Positions 7,401-64,000 of a stretch of 64,000 bases of DNA are shown here, in pieces; the stretch's first letter is position 1, and each line of letters begins with the position of its first letter. The DNA is from a virus (lineage: Duplodnaviria; Caudoviricetes). Made by a program: the position numbers and the translations under genes. The DNA lies in the IMG/VR virus record IMGVR_UViG_3300035498_000621, positions 97,413 through 161,412 of that record. One strand, 5' to 3'. The notes beneath the pieces are model-generated. The model ran no database searches, had not been told where the DNA came from, and was given only the letters and a program-made list of their open reading frames with translations.

Positions 7401-10093
7401 TTTGTAGCATCTGTAATTTTATTTTCTTTTTCAAAATACTCAAATCTATAAGCTTCTTCTGCTTCTCCCGCTCTTGCAGAATATAATGATTCATTTATTG
7501 AAACAAGTTTTGTATTGTCTTCAAGACCTATAATTTTAGTAGCATATAAATTAGAATTAGAAGGAGGATCAAATGAATTTCCTGACATGTAGAAATTTCT
7601 TTCATCTTGAGTAAGATAATTCTAACTTGGCTAAAAATCAGATTCTTGTATTATAAAAGATTCTCCAGTAAATAATGAATTATAATACGGATAATTTACA
7701 TCATATTCTGGACAAATAGCACCTTCATTTCTAACTGAATTTGTATTATTAAATTTGTACAATCTGCTATCAAAATCATGTGTTAAAATTTTTGAATTGT
7801 CTAAAAAACTTTCAGATACAAATTCATCTTTTCCAGATGGTATTAAAGGCGTTTTACTTTCTTTATCAATACCTATAGTATAAGCCTAACAATAAATAGT
7901 TGGGATTCTTTTCTATCTTACAAAGAAAAATCCTTTAATATTTAATGTATTTTTAATATAATCAAGAACCTCATCAGTTGTTTCAATTTTAATTCCAAAT
8001 ACCTATTGTGCAGAAGATTTATTAGAATTATTCCAATTTAACTAAATAACTCCTTTGCTATTTTCAAATTGATGTGAAGATGACCTAAAGTCATTTTTTT
8101 CGCAATTTTTATATGAATCAACATCAGATATTATTTTATAAGTATCTTCTTCTGTCATAATATAATTTCTGGTTTTTCCATCTTGCTAATACATTGGAAT
8201 TTTTGAATATTCTGTATTATTAGTTACATTTTCAGTTCCACGTATATTAAATACTGGAGATAAAGTATTATCAGATAAAATATAAACTATTCCTAATCTA
8301 TATATTTCATGATTCCAATATCCTGTCTAATTATAAATATAATTAGAATCATAATATCCTTTAACCGTACTACTTATATTATAATCTTGATCAATTTGAA
8401 CTTCATAATCAACATTACTTAACTAAGGAAAAAATCTTAATGATAAATCAGTTAATTCTTTATATGGAATATCTGGTTTATGAATATGCCCAATAAATAA
8501 CATATTCTAACAACTAGCCTAAGTTTCAATTGAATCTGCTACTAAATAATATGGATTAATTTCTGTTAAAGGTATATCTGTTGTATTTTCATATCCAGTT
8601 ATAACAATATTACATTTAAAATTATTATTTACAAGAAATTTCTATTCAATTTTTTTAGCAGTAACAGTAGCATTTTCTAAAATATCACTAGTTGCTTTAG
8701 TATAATATACAGTTACATACTAATATGCACTGTCTATATTTGATAATAAAAACTAAACATTTTTATGTGAATTTTCATCTCTAAATCCAGTTCTACAAGA
8801 ACCAGGATCTCCACCGATAAATACAGATACTAATCCAGATTCACATACAAAATCTGTTTCATTACCATCTGCATCTGCATATTTAAAATAGAAATGATAA
8901 TTACCAACTGATAACTATCCTCCATAATTTACTCCATAAAATTTTAATTTTGGAATTTCTATAACTCTTTTATAAAGAGATGTATCAATATCAAATTGAG
9001 AACCCTAATCATATATATTAGTATCATTATCACCTTTTCTATCAACAATCTAATATTGATTTCTTTCAGTAGCACTAAATCTTGAATTAATTAATTTAGG
9101 CTAATTACTTCCATCATTTAAAATAAGATTTACAGAACCATCATAAGAATACTATGGTAAAATATCAACTGGATGATTAAGATCACATTTTAATTCATCG
9201 GTTTCAAAATCTGCTAATTCTCCAGCTTCCATTAATACAGGATCATCTTGATCTTTTGGAATATTTTGCCATGTATTACCATAATTATTTTTAATCCAAT
9301 TTAAAGCTTCTTCATTAGTTGTAACATTTTCTGCTTTAATATTTAATTCATCAAGTAATTCACATGGAGTAAATAATCTATTTTTATAATAATACATTGT
9401 TTGAGTTAATCTATAATTTCTAAAAGGATTATACTCATAAACTAAATTTCCTTTGCTTGGTAAAAGTTTAGCAATTACTCCAAAATTTATTTGTTCTTCT
9501 AAAGCAGAATTAAAACTTATATTTTTAGTTTTATAATCTGATGAACTATATATATATTCTTTATCATCACCATCAATTATAAATGAATTTCCAGCCTAAA
9601 CATAATCACCAAAATCAACAGATAAATCAGAATCTTCAAGTTCTTCATCTACAGAAGGAAGATTTGGATTTGAAGGCTAAGTATCTTTATCTGTATTATC
9701 AGTAGAATTATTAGATGAATTATCAGAAGAATCATCTTTACCTAAACTATCTTTTCCAGATGATGCTTCACTTGATTCTTCTGCTTTATTATCATTTTTA
9801 TCTACATTACTTAAATCAGTATTTTCTAAAGTTGTATCTTTATCTGTATTATCAGTAGAATTATTAGTATTTGATGAACCAGAAGATTTTTCATCAGTAT
9901 CTACAGCAAGATTATTATCTAATTTATCTACATTACTTAAATCAGTATCTGTAGAATTATCCGTTGATTCATTTTCATTTGATGATCCTGTATCATCTGT
10001 ATCTACTTTTAAACTTGAATCAATACGATCTATATCACTTAAATCAGTATTTTCAAGTTCACTTCCATCGATAGTATTCTAAATTTCTGACAT
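4433..10093 (-). CDS. large tail stabilization/muzzle-like protein (about 1886 aa) with acidic repetitive N-terminus
   Basis: Five ORF-track fragments are in frame with ATG 10093; YHFYFKYADADGNET motif and C-terminal KIRIRYSG; crAss gene order. Confidence 0.7.
9680..10060 (-). repeat. intragenic repeats encoding TDLS(N/D)(V/I)D(K/R) x3 and NSTDNTDKDT x2
   Basis: tatctacattacttaaatcagta at about 9800 and 9925; gtatctttatctgtattatcagtagaattattag at about 9681 and 9834. Confidence 0.85.
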
Positions 10094-13100: not shown

Positions 13101-13809
13101 TTGTTTCATCATCTGTTATATCATAATCAGATATATAATAATTTCCTTTATAATTATTACCTTTATCATCTGTTACATTTATTTCATAATCCCATTTTAA
13201 TGAATCATCAAGATATGTTATTTTACCATCATCTCCTAAACATACTACATGAATAGTTATATTTTTTGGATCATTATCAATTTTAGGTTCTTTAGAAGTA
13301 GAAGGTAAATCTGAAATACACTAAAATTTTACATTATTTTTAATACCATTATTAGTAGAATATATTTTATATTTATCTCCAGGATTTAATATAAAATCAT
13401 CATCGTATAGTTTTAATTTTACAATAACATTTTTTATTTCATTATTATTTTCATTAATAAAACTTGAATTAGAAATTATTGGATTAAGATCCGATACTTC
13501 TTCTGTAGAAATATTTCTTTCTGGAGATGGAAAACTACCAATCTATGTTTTATTTATTAATGGATTATATGAAACAATATAAATAATTCCTCCTAATTCT
13601 GCAGTTCCAATTGGTACATAACCTTCAGGAAGATATGCAGTTTCAACTCTACCATTACCCATATCATTCTATAATACATATTCATTACCATTATATGTAA
13701 TTATAGTACCATTTAAACAATTTGTTAATACATTATTTGGAGTTGATAATGGATTTAAATCCATTACTAATCCTTCAGCAAAAGTATTACTTGCTTCGCT
13801 TCTTTTCAT
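10111..13809 (-). CDS. tail stabilization/muzzle-family protein (1232 aa)
   Basis: N-terminus NTFAEGLVMDLNP...LTNCLNGT...NDMGN...G..P.G..E.GGIIYIVSYNP...IGSFPSP is the crAss Tstab N-terminal signature; three ORF fragments in frame. Confidence 0.75.
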
Positions 13810-42900: not shown

Positions 42901-43195
42901 GACAATTACATGATTTATTTATTGGATAGCACAAATCAGGTTCTCTTTTATTTAACTACCCATACCATTGTAGATGATATTTTTTATTTCTTATTTCTTC
43001 TCTAAGATATTTAATAAATTTATCATCATTTAATTCTGCATAAATAACTGTAGGAACGTAATATCCTTGAGGATATAAAGTTACACTATATCCTTCTGGA
43101 TCTAATTTCTAGACTTCAATTCTACCAATATATTCTTTTTTATAAAAATCCTTGATAAATTCTAGTGTCGCTTGTTCTATATCCTGTATTGACAT
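42890..43195 (-). CDS. hypothetical protein (101 aa)
   Basis: Open under code 15; overlaps both terminase and portal ends. Confidence 0.65.
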
Positions 43196-45449
43196 ACTGT
43201 CCAAAATCGTTATTATAGTTTATTGTAATCTCATCTCTTTTAGGAATAACTCCCCATCTTGTGTTGCCATATTCATCTTTATAATAACCAATATCTTGCC
43301 AAGTATTATTTTGTACTTCTACTTGTTTTGGTATTACTCCAGTTAATTCTTCATCTGCTAATTCTGCCATAGCGACAGCAGCTACAATATCAAATTTTCT
43401 TTTATTTTCATCAGTGTATCTACTGAATTCATCTAACATTTCATCAAACCATAATGTATGAGAATAATCATTAATAAAATCAGCAATTAAATCAGTTTGA
43501 TGAGCAATAATTTGAGAAGTAGCAGGAGTTCCATATTGTTTATTTGTATTTTTTATAGAATCTCCTAGAGTTGCTCTAGGTCGTTTCATAAAATACTTCA
43601 TAAACTTTTTTTCTCTAGCCCAAGGTATAATACTTTGTCTAGTTGCTTCTATATTTATTGAAGCATTATAATATTGAGCTAATTTAATAGCTATTTTATA
43701 TGCTTCTCGTATATCATTAGGACGGTCTTTATATATTGCTACATACTAAGGTTCTTCAAGACCATATACTCTTTTTTTAACCACTAAACAAAAATCAGAT
43801 GGATTTTTTGTATTATCTGATGTTTGTCCAGAACCAATATCAATACCGTCGATACCTATTACATATAAATTTTTAATTTTTTCTTGAGGAGGCGCCCATA
43901 TTATATTTCCATTTTCATCTTTCTTTACTGGAAGATTCCATAATGGATGTTCTAATATTTTAATCGGACCATTAGCATTAGGAATCCATTTGAAACCATT
44001 TATATTTTCTTCAGCATGTTTTCCATCTTTAAATGCATATTCTAAAAATCCTTTTTCTATTGGAGGGCATTGTTTTAATGCTCTAATTTTAGTAAGCTAT
44101 TCCATAATTAGAACTTTATTAAATTTATTATCACCTTCCAAAGAAAATGCTTCTTCTGCGTTATAACAGAATTCTGCACAATACTAAACTAATTCTTGAG
44201 GATCTTCTGCTTTTAAAGCACGAGTAGCATCAAAATATTTTCTGCCTTCTTCTTCAGAAATATATCCTCTATGATCTAATAATTTAGTATCTTTAATTGT
44301 TTTAAAAGCGGGAAGAAAGAAAGCACTAATAGTTTCATCTCCTGTAGCTGTATATTTATGTTTAAATGGTAATACTCCAAAGATATGAGGTTTATAATAT
44401 ACTTTTCTAAGTCCTTCCATCTAAGGGCCTTCTTCACCACCAGTACCACCTAATAATCGAATTCCCCATTGTCTTCCAATTTGTCCAACAAGGGCATCTG
44501 CTTGTGTATAAGCTTTAGTAAAGCCAGGCCATAATCCTACCTCTTCAAACATTAATACATCAGTACGATCACCTCTAAGTTTACCAGGTTTATCAACTAC
44601 AATTCCTTGTATTTGTGATAACCAACCTACTGGTGTTTTAGCACCATTAATCATTTGATATTGTCCAGAACGTTTTAGTATAGCACTATCAATTATACGA
44701 CCATGCCTAAATCCTGGAGCATATCTATCTAAAAATGCTATATTAGCAAATACTTTTTCAAGAAGTTTATCAAGCTAAACCTATGCAAATGAACAAGCTA
44801 CGTTAACTGATCCTCTAATAACAGTATAACTATTAGAAATAATAGCAGCTTCAATTTCTGAGTATCCAGCTTCTCTAGCTTTCATCATACAAGCGTTCAT
44901 TTTTAATTTTTTAGCCATTTTTAAATAATGAAACCACTCATACTATCCTTCTAGAAAATTAGGAAATATATTTTCACGACCAGCTCCTGCTTCTTCTAGA
45001 CTGAACAAATCTTTTAATTGATAAAAGTTTAAAAAGAAATAATGGTCTCCAGTAATAGTATATCCATTTACTGTTAAACCATATTTACATCTTTTATATT
45101 GTTCTTTCCAAAAATCAGAATAAGCTTTAGAACCTTTTCTAAATTGACAATATTGTCCAGTTCTTTTAAAAGCATCTCTAGTTTCAGTAAACCAAGAAGG
45201 ATCAAAATCTAAACTTTTTGTATCATTTATAGGTTTATATCCTGTAATTTCATAAGATAAATCTTTATCAAAATATTCAATTTTCTATCCTATTGGAACA
45301 TCCCACTCAGAAATATTTTTTATTAAAGGTTCTTCATTTTCAATTATTTCTATTTGCTTAGATTCAACCTCTTCTATTAACTAAGTTATTTCTTCTGGAA
45401 GAGGATTTTTTCGAGGACGACCTCGTTTTTTCTTTTTAACTTCTTCCAT
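43140..45449 (-). CDS. terL: terminase large subunit (769 aa)
   Basis: ITGDHYFFLNF; Walker A KAREAGYSE; Walker B RGDRTDVLMFEEVG; GGTGG; nuclease YVIGIDGID and KFDIVAA; three ORF fragments in one frame. Confidence 0.92.
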
Positions 45450-60185: not shown

Positions 60186-62168
60186 ATGGCTAAAACTAAA
60201 TATACAAATATAACTCATATTCCTGGTTAGATAAAAATAAATCTTCCAAATGGTTCAGTAAAGACATTTGCAAATTCTAATGACGCTTAGAAATTCTTTG
60301 ATGAAAACTATGGAGAAGGATATTCAATAGAAGTAACTTCTTAGACAGATAATAACGGAGAAGTTACTATAAATGGAGGAGAACTTCCAGAGCTTATTGT
60401 AAGTAATAAAGCTACTAATAAATCAGTGGATCCTATTAGAGAAGGTATTTTCGAAGGTAGATATAATGGTAGAAAATTTACCCCAACTGATGCTAATATT
60501 AAACATTATCTTGATTTATATGAATCAGACAAACATATTGGAAAAGAATATGGAGATAAAGCTTGGGGTAAGGTATTTGGAACTCACGCACTTGCTGGAG
60601 CTGGAATTGCGGCAGGAGCATATGCTTTTCCATGGATAACTGCTAATATATTTCCTTATCTTACTGCTAATGGTTGGCTAGCTTCTACAACAGCAACAGG
60701 TACTACTCCAGCGTGGTTAACTCCTACTACTGCAACAGCTATTGATGCTACTATGGCAGGATTAGGAACTGGAGCATCTGTTAATGATTTAGTATAGAAT
60801 GGACCATCAGTTGGCAATGTAACTGGTACTGCATTAGGAGGATTAGGATTAGCATATGAGGCATTACCTGTAATTAAAGAAGGAACATAGCTCTTAACAA
60901 ATTGGAGACCTTATTTACCATTAAATCCAAATAGATACTATAGAATTGTAGGAGCTGCAAATAACCCTAATGGAGATGCTATTCTTGACGCTAATTTAAC
61001 AGGAGTAATTAGGAGTAATGCTACTGGTAAAAGTATGACATTTATAGATAGTGAAGGTAATGCTCATTCATTTGGTAAATCTTTTGATTACCCTATGTTT
61101 TCTAAAGGTTTTCCGTGGAGAGGAAGTACTAATGGTGCTGATTCTAAAGGATTTAGAGTAATTAGGAGTAAAGCTGATACTGGGCCTATTAAATGGGAAG
61201 AATCTAATATTGATTTTAGACATAAAGGACATAAAGGAATCTTTAGACCTAGATATAATGGAGATTTACAAGCATCTCCTACTGAATATTTTGAATATTG
61301 GGAACCTGCTAAATGGTTTGGTTGGAATAGAAAGAACTTTACGAAAGTAAATAATTCTGTAAATAATTCTGTTAATTATGGATTAGAAAATTTTAAACAT
61401 ATTATAGATAGTGAAAAAGATCCTGATTTAAAATCAAAATTAATTTAGATGTATAAAGATAAATATCCTGAAAATGAAGGGTATTTACGCTATGAAGATG
61501 AATTAAATAAGTATCTTGATCTTTGGTATAAATAGGTTACTCGTCCTCAACTTTAGTAGTAGGGAATTACTAATGTTCCTGATAATCTATTTTTTTAATC
61601 CAAAATGGTCATATGGATTTTCAAATCAACCTGTAGTAATAGTTAGTCATTCTGATGGCCTTCCAGAGAATTCATTTGGAGTACATTATACTATGTCAGG
61701 ACATAATTATGTTATTGATGACCTAAATTAGGAACGTTTAAATAGTCACGGAATACATGAAGCAGTTTCTCATGGAACAGATATGTTTGTTGTTAATATA
61801 AAAACAAATATTAGACATTTTTAGATGAAATTGCTAATAATAGCGGACTAAGTTTTAAAACTAGAGGAGAAAATTGGCAAGAATTACGTGCTACTTTAAA
61901 TCAAGTAAAACATAGTTTAAGAAAATATTTCCCATTAAAAGATGGAAAACTTGTAATAAATGAAGAGAGTGTTTCAAAAATTCCAGAAGACGAATTATTA
62001 AATGCTTTAGAATATTCTAATGGTTACGCAGAAGATGATTATGTCCCGATGATTAATTCATTAGATGAAAAAACTAGATCTGAAACTATAAATAAATTAC
62101 GTAAGCTGTTATTACTTCCTTCTATGACAGGAATTACATATAAAACATTAAAAAATAATAATGAATAA
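60186..62168 (+). CDS. modular effector-like protein (shared N-domain, possible ART-like domain, HExxxH zincin-like domain) interrupted by two compensating homopolymer indels
   Basis: Paralogous N-terminus to 56121; TAA at 61596-98 after a T7 run; HEAVSH in the +1 frame; original frame resumes near an A5 run at 61800 with WQELRA. Confidence 0.7.
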
Positions 62169-62170
62169 CA

Positions 62171-63121
62171 ATGAAATATTATGGCGATGAATAGCATCCA
62201 ATAGAATTAAATTCAGTAACAATAACTTATAATAAAAAAGGATACTTAGATAAAATTTTAGATTTTATAAATGATGAAATCTTTTTAAATAGGGATAATA
62301 TAAGAACTAATAATATTAATAATAATCCTAACGCTCTTGATAATTTTGATATTGCAAAAAATGTTACAGAATTTACAAATATATCATCATTGGGCCTTAT
62401 TAATAGATTTTCTCCTACACAAAATATTAGATTAATGCTTGATGCATTTAAAGGGAATAATATAATTGATAGTTGGTTTGGAAATAATGGTATTGTTTCT
62501 GACAATTTTGCAGACTCATATCCAAAATTATCGTTTGCTATAAATGGAATTGCTGATTTAGGAACAACTTCTTTTTCATTAAAACCGTTTGATTATGGTC
62601 AATAGTATAAAAATTTATCAGGGAAATGGAATAATTTTGGATCAGAATCTTATGTACGATTATCAGATAATGTTGTTCATAAAATACCTCAAAAGCCACT
62701 AAAGTATAAATTTCAAATACCTTTTGCAGTTAGATCGAAATTAAATGCAAATAGATATAATAGTCAAGTTCCATACACATATAAAGGTTATTTAAAAAAT
62801 AAATCTGGATATTACCCAATTTACGAACAATCTAAAGTAGAAATCCCTCCTAGGGGATCAATTTTAGAAACCAAAGCATATAATGACGTAATATCTTCAA
62901 ATGCTAAAGAACCTTTAAGAACTAAATTACAATATAATATATTTGATATAGATATAGGACATAATATAGGAATATTAAACGGAAAAGGAGTAATGTATGA
63001 TCCTATACTAAGTTAGGGTATAGTACCTCCTATAGGTAGTTGGGTTAATAGAAATTTTATATTCAATTATAATATGCTTCCTATATTATCAGGATTAAAT
63101 GGGTAGATAGTAGATAAATAA
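62171..63121 (+). CDS. Ser/Thr kinase-like protein (Kinase-PolyVal-like, 316 aa)
   Basis: FGSESYV...VVHK, YPIYEQ, FDIDIGHNIG...VMYDP. Confidence 0.7.
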
Positions 63122-63133
63122 TTGGATTAAAGA

Positions 63134-63167
63134 AAAGGCGGCTCGGATTCACATCCAAGTCGCCTTT
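63134..63167. terminator. bidirectional terminator between convergent operons
   Basis: AAAGGCGGCT...AGTCGCCTTT stem with A/T runs on both sides. Confidence 0.75.
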
Positions 63168-63171
63168 ATAA

Positions 63172-63327
63172 TTAATATTTTACACTCAATTCATTAATCT
63201 TATCCAATATATTTAATAATGTTTGACTATTAGTTAATTCTTTTTCTTCTGCAAATAAAATAACTTTTTCTAAAAGTCTTATTGCAATTTGTCCAATTTC
63301 ATAAAGTTGTTGTTGATTAGTTTCCAT
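63172..63327 (-). CDS. small hypothetical protein (51 aa)
   Basis: METNQQQLYEIGQIAIRLLEKV...; ATG to TAA, AT-rich leader. Confidence 0.6.
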   Translation of the reverse strand: METNQQQLYEIGQIAIRLLEKVILFAEEKELTNSQTLLNILDKINELSVKY

Positions 63328-63343
63328 ATAATTTTATTATTAG

Positions 63344-63430
63344 TTGCCTCTCTAGGATTCGAACCTAGACTAACGCCTTCAAAGGGCTACAGATTTAGAG
63401 TCTGCCGTGCTGCCATTACACCAAGAGGCA
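63344..63430 (-). tRNA. amber suppressor tRNA (anticodon CTA) on a tRNA-Gln-like body
   Basis: Acceptor TGCCTCT/AGAGGCA (U1-A72); D arm GGTGTAATGGCAGCAC; anticodon arm GCAGA-CTCTAAA-TCTGT; T arm CTAGG-TTCGAAT-CCTAG; no encoded CCA. Confidence 0.93.
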
Positions 63431-63458
63431 ATATTTAGCTGGAAATCCAGCTAATATT

Positions 63459-63848
63459 TTAAAGATTTGCTAAAAACTCTTTTATTTCTTTTATTTTATT
63501 TGTAAAATATTTATGAATTTCGAGTTTTGTAAAATTAATCATAAATTCTATAAGATCAGCATCTTCTTCTGAATAAGAATCTTGATTAAGAAGATTATCA
63601 AAAGTTTTTAAATCCATCTCTTTTCCGACTTCTTCAATAATTTTCACAAAATCATCATCATCAATTGATTCAATACTTTCTTTATATCTATCTACTGTTT
63701 CTTTAATCTGAGAATCATCAAAAGGTTCATCTGTAGTTATTTCCTCGCCATTAACTACTAATTTCTCTTTTCCGTTAATATTCTAATATTGAATATTTAT
63801 AGTTTCTGGATTTGAGAATACGGTTTCAAATAATTTTTCTAGATTCAT
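63459..63848 (-). CDS. acidic hypothetical protein (129 aa, 1 TAG)
   Basis: MNLEKLFETVFSNPETINIQYQNINGKEKL...; extends the ORF-track fragment. Confidence 0.75.
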
Positions 63849-63869
63849 ATGTCATTTATTTTTTATAAG

Positions 63870-63900
63870 CAAATATAATATTATATATGTTAATTAAAAA
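63870..63900 (-). promoter_or_regulatory. probable Bacteroidota sigma promoter for the suppressor-tRNA operon
   Basis: TATATTTG -7 box at 63877-63870; weak -33 (TTTT at N19). Confidence 0.5.
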
Positions 63901-64000
63901 TATATAAATGTTAATTATTATTAAATTACTTTTTACGGAATAAAAATTAACTATACATTATATTTTATCCCCCCCCCTATCTAGCAAATCCCGATTTTTT

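Follow-up and report, generated by a model that had tools for sequence, protein, structure and literature searches.

The window analysed here is a stretch of DNA of 64,000 nt, the right-hand 64 kb of a viral record of 161,412 bp with 27% GC and a CheckV completeness estimate of about 89%. ARAGORN identified one tRNA across the window, at 63343-63430 on the minus strand with anticodon CTA, and the Rfam tRNA family RF00005 matched 63344-63430 on the same strand over its full model (59.8 bits, with the gathering score at 29; E 2e-10). The record as a whole holds 14 tRNAs, of which only this one carries CUA. The tRNA gene, its internal elements and its neighbours are as follows.

63344-63430, minus strand: amber suppressor tRNA(CUA) with a Gln-type body, 87 nt, CCA not encoded (ARAGORN, Rfam, fold, alignment)
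63396-63398, minus strand: decoding anticodon CUA, in the loop CUCUAAA on a 5-bp stem GCAGA/UCUGU (sequence, ARAGORN drawing)
63375-63387, minus strand: inserted hairpin GCC-CUUUGAA-GGC, a putative 'second anticodon arm' of 13 nt, directly 3' of the anticodon stem (folds; same position in 24/24 long-arm Gln-type tRNA(CUA))
63380-63382, minus strand: putative spare Gln anticodon UUG, loop positions 3-5, flanked by U and A like positions 33 and 37 (sequence; motif in 24/24 versus 0/55 class II tRNAs)
63369-63374, minus strand: 3' tail GUUAGU, ending in UAGU, which is similar to CUGU, the 4-nt variable loop of the phage tRNA-Gln(UUG) (sequence comparison)
63435-63454, no strand assigned: hairpin of 8 bp with a 4-nt loop, ending 4 nt before the tRNA 5' end, terminator-like on the plus strand (-11.4 kcal/mol, z -3.9)
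63459-63848, minus strand: ORF of 129 aa upstream of the tRNA, containing a single in-frame TAG, without a family match, ending just before the hairpin (RNA contigs at 63569-63838)
63172-63327, minus strand: small putative ORF of 51 aa directly downstream of the tRNA (ORF list)
63134-63167, no strand assigned: strong imperfect hairpin, then a U-run on the minus strand (-21.3 kcal/mol, z -5.4)

The acceptor stem of the tRNA is UGCCUCU/AGAGGCA, which gives U1-A72, G2-C71, C3-G70 and A73, and is followed by U8 and G9. The D arm, GUGU-AAUGGCA-GCAC and then G, has a 4-bp stem and a 7-nt loop. The anticodon arm is GCAGA-CUCUAAA-UCUGU, both in the sequence and in the ARAGORN drawing, and the T arm is CUAGG-UUCGAAU-CCUAG. 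Between these two arms lies a variable region of 20 nt, exactly AGCCCUUUGAAGGCGUUAGU. The minimum-energy fold is a cloverleaf with an additional GCC/GGC hairpin in the variable region, closed by a 7-nt loop.

An earlier note on this DNA had described an amber suppressor of 87 nt with U1-A72, a Gln-type D arm, CUA, A73 and a variable region of about 20 nt forming a short stem. All of these features are present in the sequence and consistent with ARAGORN, Rfam and the fold, and the ARAGORN check that the note proposed did return the tRNA with anticodon CTA. CUA stands in a 7-nt loop on a 5-bp stem, in a phage with in-frame TAG in essential genes, as expected of an amber suppressor. ARAGORN labels the gene 'Pyl', a label that merely follows the anticodon. 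We rejected this assignment: tRNA-Pyl has a 3-nt variable loop, a small D loop without G18G19 and a 6-bp anticodon stem, and comes with pyl genes, whereas the window tRNA has G18G19, a 7-nt D loop, a 5-bp anticodon stem and the 20-nt variable region.

With respect to the surroundings of the gene, the hairpin that the earlier note had placed just before the tRNA 5' end is real. There is no room for a promoter between it and the tRNA, so that transcription of the tRNA probably runs through the hairpin, a possible leaky terminator or processing or stability element. The note had also assigned the tRNA its own host-type promoter, which our counts do not bear out: 62900-64000 contains 11 sigma-70-like sites, not above the 8.1 +/- 3.0 found in shuffles. 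The Bacteroidota -7 promoter motif is TAnnTTTG, and no match to this consensus was seen by eye. Downstream, the hairpin at 63134-63167 is likely a two-way terminator that closes the tRNA unit after the 51-codon ORF. No theta/HDV-like ribozyme or other Rfam family was detected beside the tRNA at E-values up to 1.

Contigs from three gut metatranscriptome libraries, from three studies, match 63569-63838 only, and the tRNA lies outside them. Since they are 100% identical to the window, the phage or a very close relative was present in those three samples, with DNA carry-over possible. The DNA of 62000-64000 has no near-identical match among named phage records. A run of nine C lies at window positions 63969-63977, near the end of the record, in this genome of 27% GC. 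GC-rich hairpins of unrelated sequence also stand 4-10 nt upstream of suppressor tRNAs in three other phages, some of them followed by a U-run and all so near the tRNA that a promoter would not fit in the gap:

L045, 355-443: suppressor tRNA with upstream hairpin
L080, 965-1053: suppressor tRNA with upstream hairpin
L014, 1387-1476: suppressor tRNA with upstream hairpin

TAG behaves as a sense codon in much of this genome. Reading through TAG takes the residues in ORFs of at least 100 aa from 11.5k to 24.3k and lengthens the longest ORF from 478 to 1896 aa; open-frame content gains little when TGA is treated as a sense codon. The whole record contains 504 in-frame TAG versus 1291 CAA, and CAG is almost absent from real genes. 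PHROGs profiles recognised a large terminase, a portal and a tail protein, whose genes carry 9-23 in-frame TAG each:

43140-45449 of the window, minus strand: large terminase (TerL), nine in-frame TAG (PHROGs)

TerL is about 27% identical to that of named crAss-like phages and 57% identical to that of an unannotated human-gut phage record, and we therefore regard this virus as a distant crAss-related gut phage. The placement of the suppressor in a crAss-related phage by the earlier note thus agrees with our data, in that TAG is a sense codon throughout the late genes and the phage is distantly crAss-like. A plus-strand gene block at about 9.5-64 kb of the record lacks in-frame TAG save one at 34.0-34.6 kb; compatible with the standard code, it presumably holds the early genes. 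Beyond 64 kb, as far as the end of the record, genes contain as many as 39 TAG apiece. The suppressor stands at the extreme right of the record, on the strand opposite to that of the main tRNA cluster at 3-21 kb.

For the meaning of TAG, TerL was aligned with 13 relatives fetched as DNA, so that the code chosen by a gene caller cannot bias the answer. In the TerL columns with TAG, the other sequences have Q 134 times, E 116 times and K 74 times, and the commonest codon is CAA (101). Several of these columns are all or almost all Q, for example 11/11, 11/12 and 5/5. Because the TAG columns match Gln and CAA, and because CAG is nearly absent, the alignment supports Gln as the amino acid at TAG. 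A study of crAss-like phages gives agreeing proteomic evidence that TAG is Gln there (PMC9523058).

The body of the suppressor resembles a tRNA-Gln. With 14 nt removed, namely the hairpin and the preceding A, it is 74 nt long (counting, as ARAGORN does, one base past A73), and this form aligns best to the phage tRNA-Gln(UUG) at record positions 7871-7942, with 70% identity and a score of 26; the other twelve tRNAs score at most 13. The two tRNAs have in common U1-A72, G2-C71, A73 and the same D stem. They differ by one base in the D loop (AAUGGUA in tRNA-Gln(UUG) versus AAUGGCA) and in the first pair of the anticodon stem (ACAGA/UCUGU versus GCAGA/UCUGU). The Gln identity features claimed in the earlier note are to this extent borne out.

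When compared with the identity set of E. coli tRNA-Gln (PMC9976931), the suppressor has the weak U1-A72 pair, G2-C71, G10-C25 and U35, but A36, C3-G70 and A73 in place of G36, G3-C70 and G73. Host identity rules may differ from those of E. coli, because the phage tRNA-Gln(UUG) likewise has A73. A G matching position 36 stands only in the loop of the inserted hairpin.

That loop, C-U-UUG-A-A, reads as an anticodon loop: a pyrimidine, U, UUG, A and A. UUG is a Gln anticodon and also that of the phage tRNA-Gln, whose own loop is UUUUGAU. The suppressor thus has the look of a class I tRNA-Gln into which a further small anticodon arm has been inserted, between the anticodon stem and the normal short variable loop. 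The earlier note had taken the long arm as class II-like and, as the comparison suggests, had overlooked that the 7-nt loop of the extra hairpin copies the Gln anticodon loop. Its reading fits one feature, a variable region of more than 10 nt that forms a stem, here 20 nt, but not the core and arm geometry. A 4-bp D stem and a body closest to tRNA-Gln speak against a class II tRNA, as does the 6-nt tail behind the hairpin, which ends in four bases resembling the tRNA-Gln variable loop. This 3' linker has a median of 6 nt in the long-arm CUA class versus 2 nt in 50 class II tRNAs of the same loci, and the arm loop is 7 nt in the window tRNA versus a median of 4 in the same 50. Among the long-arm CUA tRNAs the loop measures 4 to 8 nt and YUG has no fixed place in it, so that not every one of them carries a faithful copy of an anticodon loop.

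Two other readings of the loop were dropped: pairing with the anticodon stem, for which complementarity is inconsistent between subfamilies, and a K-turn or box C/D motif formed by CUGA, for which the partner motif is missing. The phage has a further long-arm tRNA, a tRNA-Thr(UGU) at record positions 13444-13528, outside the window, which is 85 nt long with a 15-nt variable region UCU-GAAA-AGA. This isotype is normally short-armed, and the locus L117 holds a similar tRNA-Thr(UGU) of 86 nt. As its loop is a GNRA tetraloop, GAAA, and no anticodon copy, the long arms of this phage are not all of one kind.

To place the hairpin among other suppressors, we ran two scans of IMG/VR with patterns that fix the anticodon loop, one or two flanking stem pairs and the T loop and leave the variable region free. 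In the first scan, open to any arm length, 25 of 123 tRNA(CUA) were at least 82 nt long and about 80% were short. After duplicate removal, 27 long-arm tRNA(CUA) remained with the window's included, 24 of them Gln-type and three others. All 24 distinct Gln-type tRNAs carry CUGA or UUGA (YUGA) in the apical loop of the hairpin, a count that overstates independence because the 24 share ancestry within subfamilies. The stems beneath the loop comprise at least six unrelated sequences, namely GCC/GGC, GCGG/CCGC, GUGGGG/CCCCGC, CUGG/CCAG, AGCCCC/GGAGCU, ACUCUC/AGGGU and GC(U)/(G)GC. The alignment with other tRNA(CUA) that the earlier note had called for therefore shows the arm conserved in its YUGA loop, on differing stems. 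In the MAFFT alignment, U, G and A of the motif are nearly invariant columns, none of which was fixed by the search patterns. The first pair is weak in this set (U-A in 14, A·C in six, others in four), and 23 of 24 have G2-C71 or G·U. The cloverleaf shows compensatory changes at 15 of 19 pairs across the 24 homologues, which makes this a diverse set.

Controls were as follows. Among class II tRNAs of the same loci, YUGA occurs anywhere in the arm in 3/55 and in the loop in 0/55; a long arm is found in 0/16 ordinary tRNA-Gln; and in arms shuffled with composition kept, the motif has a chance of 0.14 per sequence. The three tRNA(CUA) outside the Gln-type set (L060, L102 and L079, with duplicates L087 and L100) start with G or C, have arms of 13-16 nt and lack the Gln motif; they look Ser-, Leu- or Tyr-derived and are candidate amber suppressors of a non-Gln type.

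Three carriers have a TerL 48-49% identical to that of this phage, with 12-14 in-frame TAG. In seven other carriers, mostly complete genomes of 139-188 kb, no TerL homologue was detectable, and the long-arm carriers span more than one phage lineage. The closest TerL relatives, at 73% identity, have short-arm Gln-type suppressors of 72-73 nt. Since these use no arm, the arm is dispensable, and helpful at most. A search by DNA for the tRNA locus in five TerL relatives gave weak partial matches to other tRNAs and one short-arm suppressor, so the locus as such is not conserved.

At three loci two tRNA(CUA) genes lie close together, a short-loop gene of 73-75 nt and a gene of 89-94 nt that has the spare-anticodon hairpin:

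L124, 8021-8095 and 8521-8614: paired tRNA(CUA) genes
L125, 5863-5935 and 6364-6457: paired tRNA(CUA) genes
L126, 192-280 and 286-358: paired tRNA(CUA) genes

Three other long-arm phage tRNAs have Asn, Trp or His anticodons. The D arms of the Asn and Trp cases look Ser-type by eye, and these tRNAs may represent another kind of mismatch between identity and anticodon:

L298 (G001), 1232-1319: long-arm tRNA-Asn(GUU), 88 nt
L008, 11175-11265: long-arm tRNA-Trp(CCA), 91 nt
L132, 1713-1796: long-arm tRNA-His(GUG), 84 nt

An independent parallel was found in UGA suppressors. A scan for long-arm tRNA(UCA) yielded nine distinct tRNAs of 93-100 nt, all nine with UCCAA in the hairpin loop, which corresponds to U33-CCA-A37 of tRNA-Trp. 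The hairpin is often a 5-bp stem with a 7-nt loop, and in four of the nine RNAfold places UCCAA in the 7-nt loop GUCCAAA. These tRNAs came from a looser pattern; a stricter UCA scan with a fixed A31-U39 pair gave six matches and no convincing tRNA. YUGA occurs in 0/9 of the UCA tRNAs and UCCAA in 0/24 of the CUA tRNAs. Because YUGA goes with CUA (24 versus 0) and UCCAA with UCA (0 versus 9), the loop sequence appears to track the amino acid given to the reassigned stop codon. With respect to TGA as a sense codon in the UCA carriers, ORF lengths on these short loci are clear in L153 only, where the largest ORF grows from 273 to 1096 aa, and ambiguous in the rest.

The charging of phage suppressors is an open question in the recoding literature (10.1101/2021.08.26.457843). 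Across the 161-kb record, about 89% complete, PF00749, PF03950 and PF02637 had no match, and neither GlnRS/GluRS catalytic or C-terminal domains, nor GatB-YqeY or release-factor domains, nor a CCA-adding enzyme were found in the record; as a control, the Bacteroides thetaiotaomicron genome matched the GlnRS-type C-terminal domain. Lacking a synthetase, GatB, a release factor and a CCA-adding enzyme of its own, the phage must therefore rely on host enzymes. The dedicated phage synthetase suggested in the earlier note accordingly has no counterpart in the record, and the note's other two proposals, that the arm competes with RF1 or evades host tRNA nucleases, explain neither the conserved YUGA nor UCCAA in UGA suppressors.

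We lean, if only slightly, towards the hairpin acting as a surrogate anticodon for host GlnRS, the putative function with the best support. The suppressor would serve as the UAG decoder of the phage, inserting Gln at the roughly 500 in-frame TAG of middle and late genes. As a putative tRNA-Gln derivative, it would carry a second, reduced anticodon arm, with a 3-bp stem and a 7-nt loop, right after the real one. GlnRS of E. coli uses U35 and G36 as determinants, and changes to the anticodon lower activity by as much as 10^5-fold, largely through kcat (PMC9976931). We propose the spare loop as a remedy because G36, which GlnRS relies on together with U35, is lost from the suppressor, although C34 and U35 are retained. 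The spare loop would supply the missing anticodon signal to host GlnRS, or to whichever host enzyme reads the Gln anticodon, so that charging with Gln could be efficient while the CUA arm decodes. TrpRS, like GlnRS, is strongly anticodon-dependent. Whether the tRNAs as a group represent an undescribed way to keep tRNA identity, with a second, non-decoding arm read by the host synthetase (GlnRS for CUA, TrpRS for UCA), is in our judgement evenly balanced.

We infer both the synthetase as the partner of the hairpin and the way in which the hairpin reaches the enzyme. In the CUA class the hairpin begins where the anticodon stem ends, and the flexible linker behind it (median 6 nt) could let it lie along that stem and bring its loop close to the anticodon. 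The two arms could instead trade places in stacking on the D stem. This geometry is the weak point of the surrogate anticodon. In the GlnRS complex the variable region faces solvent, away from the enzyme, and the hairpin would be out of reach of the anticodon-binding domain unless it folded along the anticodon stem or the arms swapped stacking. The 3-bp stem of the window hairpin and the loop range of 4 to 8 nt also count against a strict mimic, and amber suppressors with a plain Gln body (supE type), which GlnRS charges without an arm, count against the need for one.

We weighed four other explanations of the hairpin. It is unlikely, though worth keeping in view, that the hairpin is bound by some other partner, such as a protein of the phage, an enzyme that modifies tRNAs and recognises the Gln or Trp loop, EF-Tu or a ribosome contact acting against RF1, or that it makes an intramolecular contact. 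The anticodon-like sequence would in that case be a requirement of this partner. A loop kept while its stems vary speaks of selection on the loop without naming what binds it, many phage ORFs lack a family match, and loops of 4 to 8 nt suit a short motif better than a strict anticodon-loop shape. Because the motif switches with the reassigned amino acid, in a perfect association of YUGA with CUA and UCCAA with UCA (24/0 versus 0/9), the data point instead to a reader of amino-acid identity; competition with release factors or a generic structural role would not predict such a switch, and the absence of a synthetase, GatB or release-factor gene from the record also tells against a partner of this kind. 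An evolutionary leftover, in which the anticodon arm of a tRNA-Gln was duplicated in tandem, one copy mutated to CUA and the other decayed without function, seems to us distinctly improbable. It would account for the position of the hairpin, which adjoins the anticodon arm and is followed by what appears to be the original short variable loop, for the 3-bp stem of the window copy and for close relatives that have no arm. Yet a neutral relic should lose its loop first, and here the loop triplet and the A are kept in 24/24 while stems are replaced; moreover, the design is found in phages without a detectable shared TerL, and the same design exists for Trp.

Very improbable, in our view, is a two-headed tRNA in which either arm decodes, so that UAG and CAA/CAG are both read as Gln. 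Several UGA suppressors do have a full 5-bp stem and 7-nt loop in the second arm, and the likeness of the 3' tail to a normal variable loop would suit a second arm that had been the original anticodon arm. The second stem in the window has only 3 bp, though, and many members have loops of 4-6 nt; the phage has a separate tRNA-Gln(UUG), and the ribosome requires a fixed distance between acceptor and anticodon, which a hairpin inserted between positions 26 and 27 would probably disturb. That the tRNA is an ordinary class II suppressor of Ser, Leu or Tyr descent, charged via its long arm so that TAG is not Gln, is scarcely credible. The 20-nt variable region would allow it, and the G/C-starting, motif-less tRNA(CUA) of L060, L102 and L079 may be such tRNAs, but the 4-bp D stem, 7-nt D loop and U1-A72, a body closest to tRNA-Gln, a 3' linker of 6 nt versus 1-2 nt in class II tRNAs and the alignment of TAG with Gln all oppose it here.

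The surrogate anticodon can be set against several known systems. Code 15 (TAG-to-Gln) gut phages, including crAss-like, Lak and phAss-1 phages and others (10.1101/2021.08.26.457843, PMC9523058, PMC12386605), likewise have a phage CUA tRNA and read late-gene TAG as Gln. They have no phage synthetase, and host charging is presumed, as here. Their tRNA-Sup(CUA) mostly has a short variable loop, as do those of the closest relatives of this phage, whereas the window tRNA has the extra anticodon-like hairpin. The E. coli supE-type (tRNA-Gln CUA) and su7 (tRNA-Trp CUA, charged with Gln) suppressors also combine a weak 1-72 pair, a Gln- or Trp-like body and CUA, and GlnRS takes both since C34 and U35 remain (PMC9976931). 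Unlike the window tRNA, they are single-base anticodon mutants with a 4-5-nt variable loop and without a second cognate anticodon.

Class II tRNAs (Leu, Ser, bacterial Tyr and Sec) and allo-tRNAs (PMC5389517) likewise have an extra stem-loop between the anticodon and T arms, and in Ser and Sec tRNAs that arm is an identity element. The window tRNA differs from them in its class I core, with a 4-bp D stem and 7/5 acceptor/T stems, in the position of its hairpin 5' of a 4-6-nt tail rather than 1-2 nt, and in its 7-nt anticodon-like loop in place of one of 3-4 nt. Copies of an anticodon loop outside the decoding arm also occur in mRNA, in the E. coli thrS operator and the yeast AspRS mRNA. Hairpins of the thrS operator type bind synthetases by identity rules, and a changed 'anticodon' switches the enzyme (PMC9976931). 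Those mimics sit in leaders and regulate translation, whereas here the copy lies inside a tRNA and has a putative role in aminoacylation.

A description of a variable-region hairpin or anticodon-like loop in such tRNAs was not found in the openly available literature that can be searched in full text. The recoding literature covered comprised 10.1101/2021.08.26.457843, the zeta-crAss paper, the Egyptian amber-reassigned Crassvirales preprint (10.64898/2026.08.21.746148), the theta-ribozyme paper, the 213-tRNA screen preprint and a tRNA identity review.

A hairpin that switches from Gln-type to Trp-type with the reassigned codon provides a concrete, testable hypothesis for the question of charging. 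Should the surrogate reading fail, gut phages of a widespread group would still share a strongly conserved RNA motif. If it is true, the hairpin would be a new kind of tRNA identity element, in which an 'identity anticodon' is split from the 'decoding anticodon'. It would also offer a simple design principle for efficient suppressor tRNAs that hijack host synthetases, and would bear on the timing of the code switch during infection.
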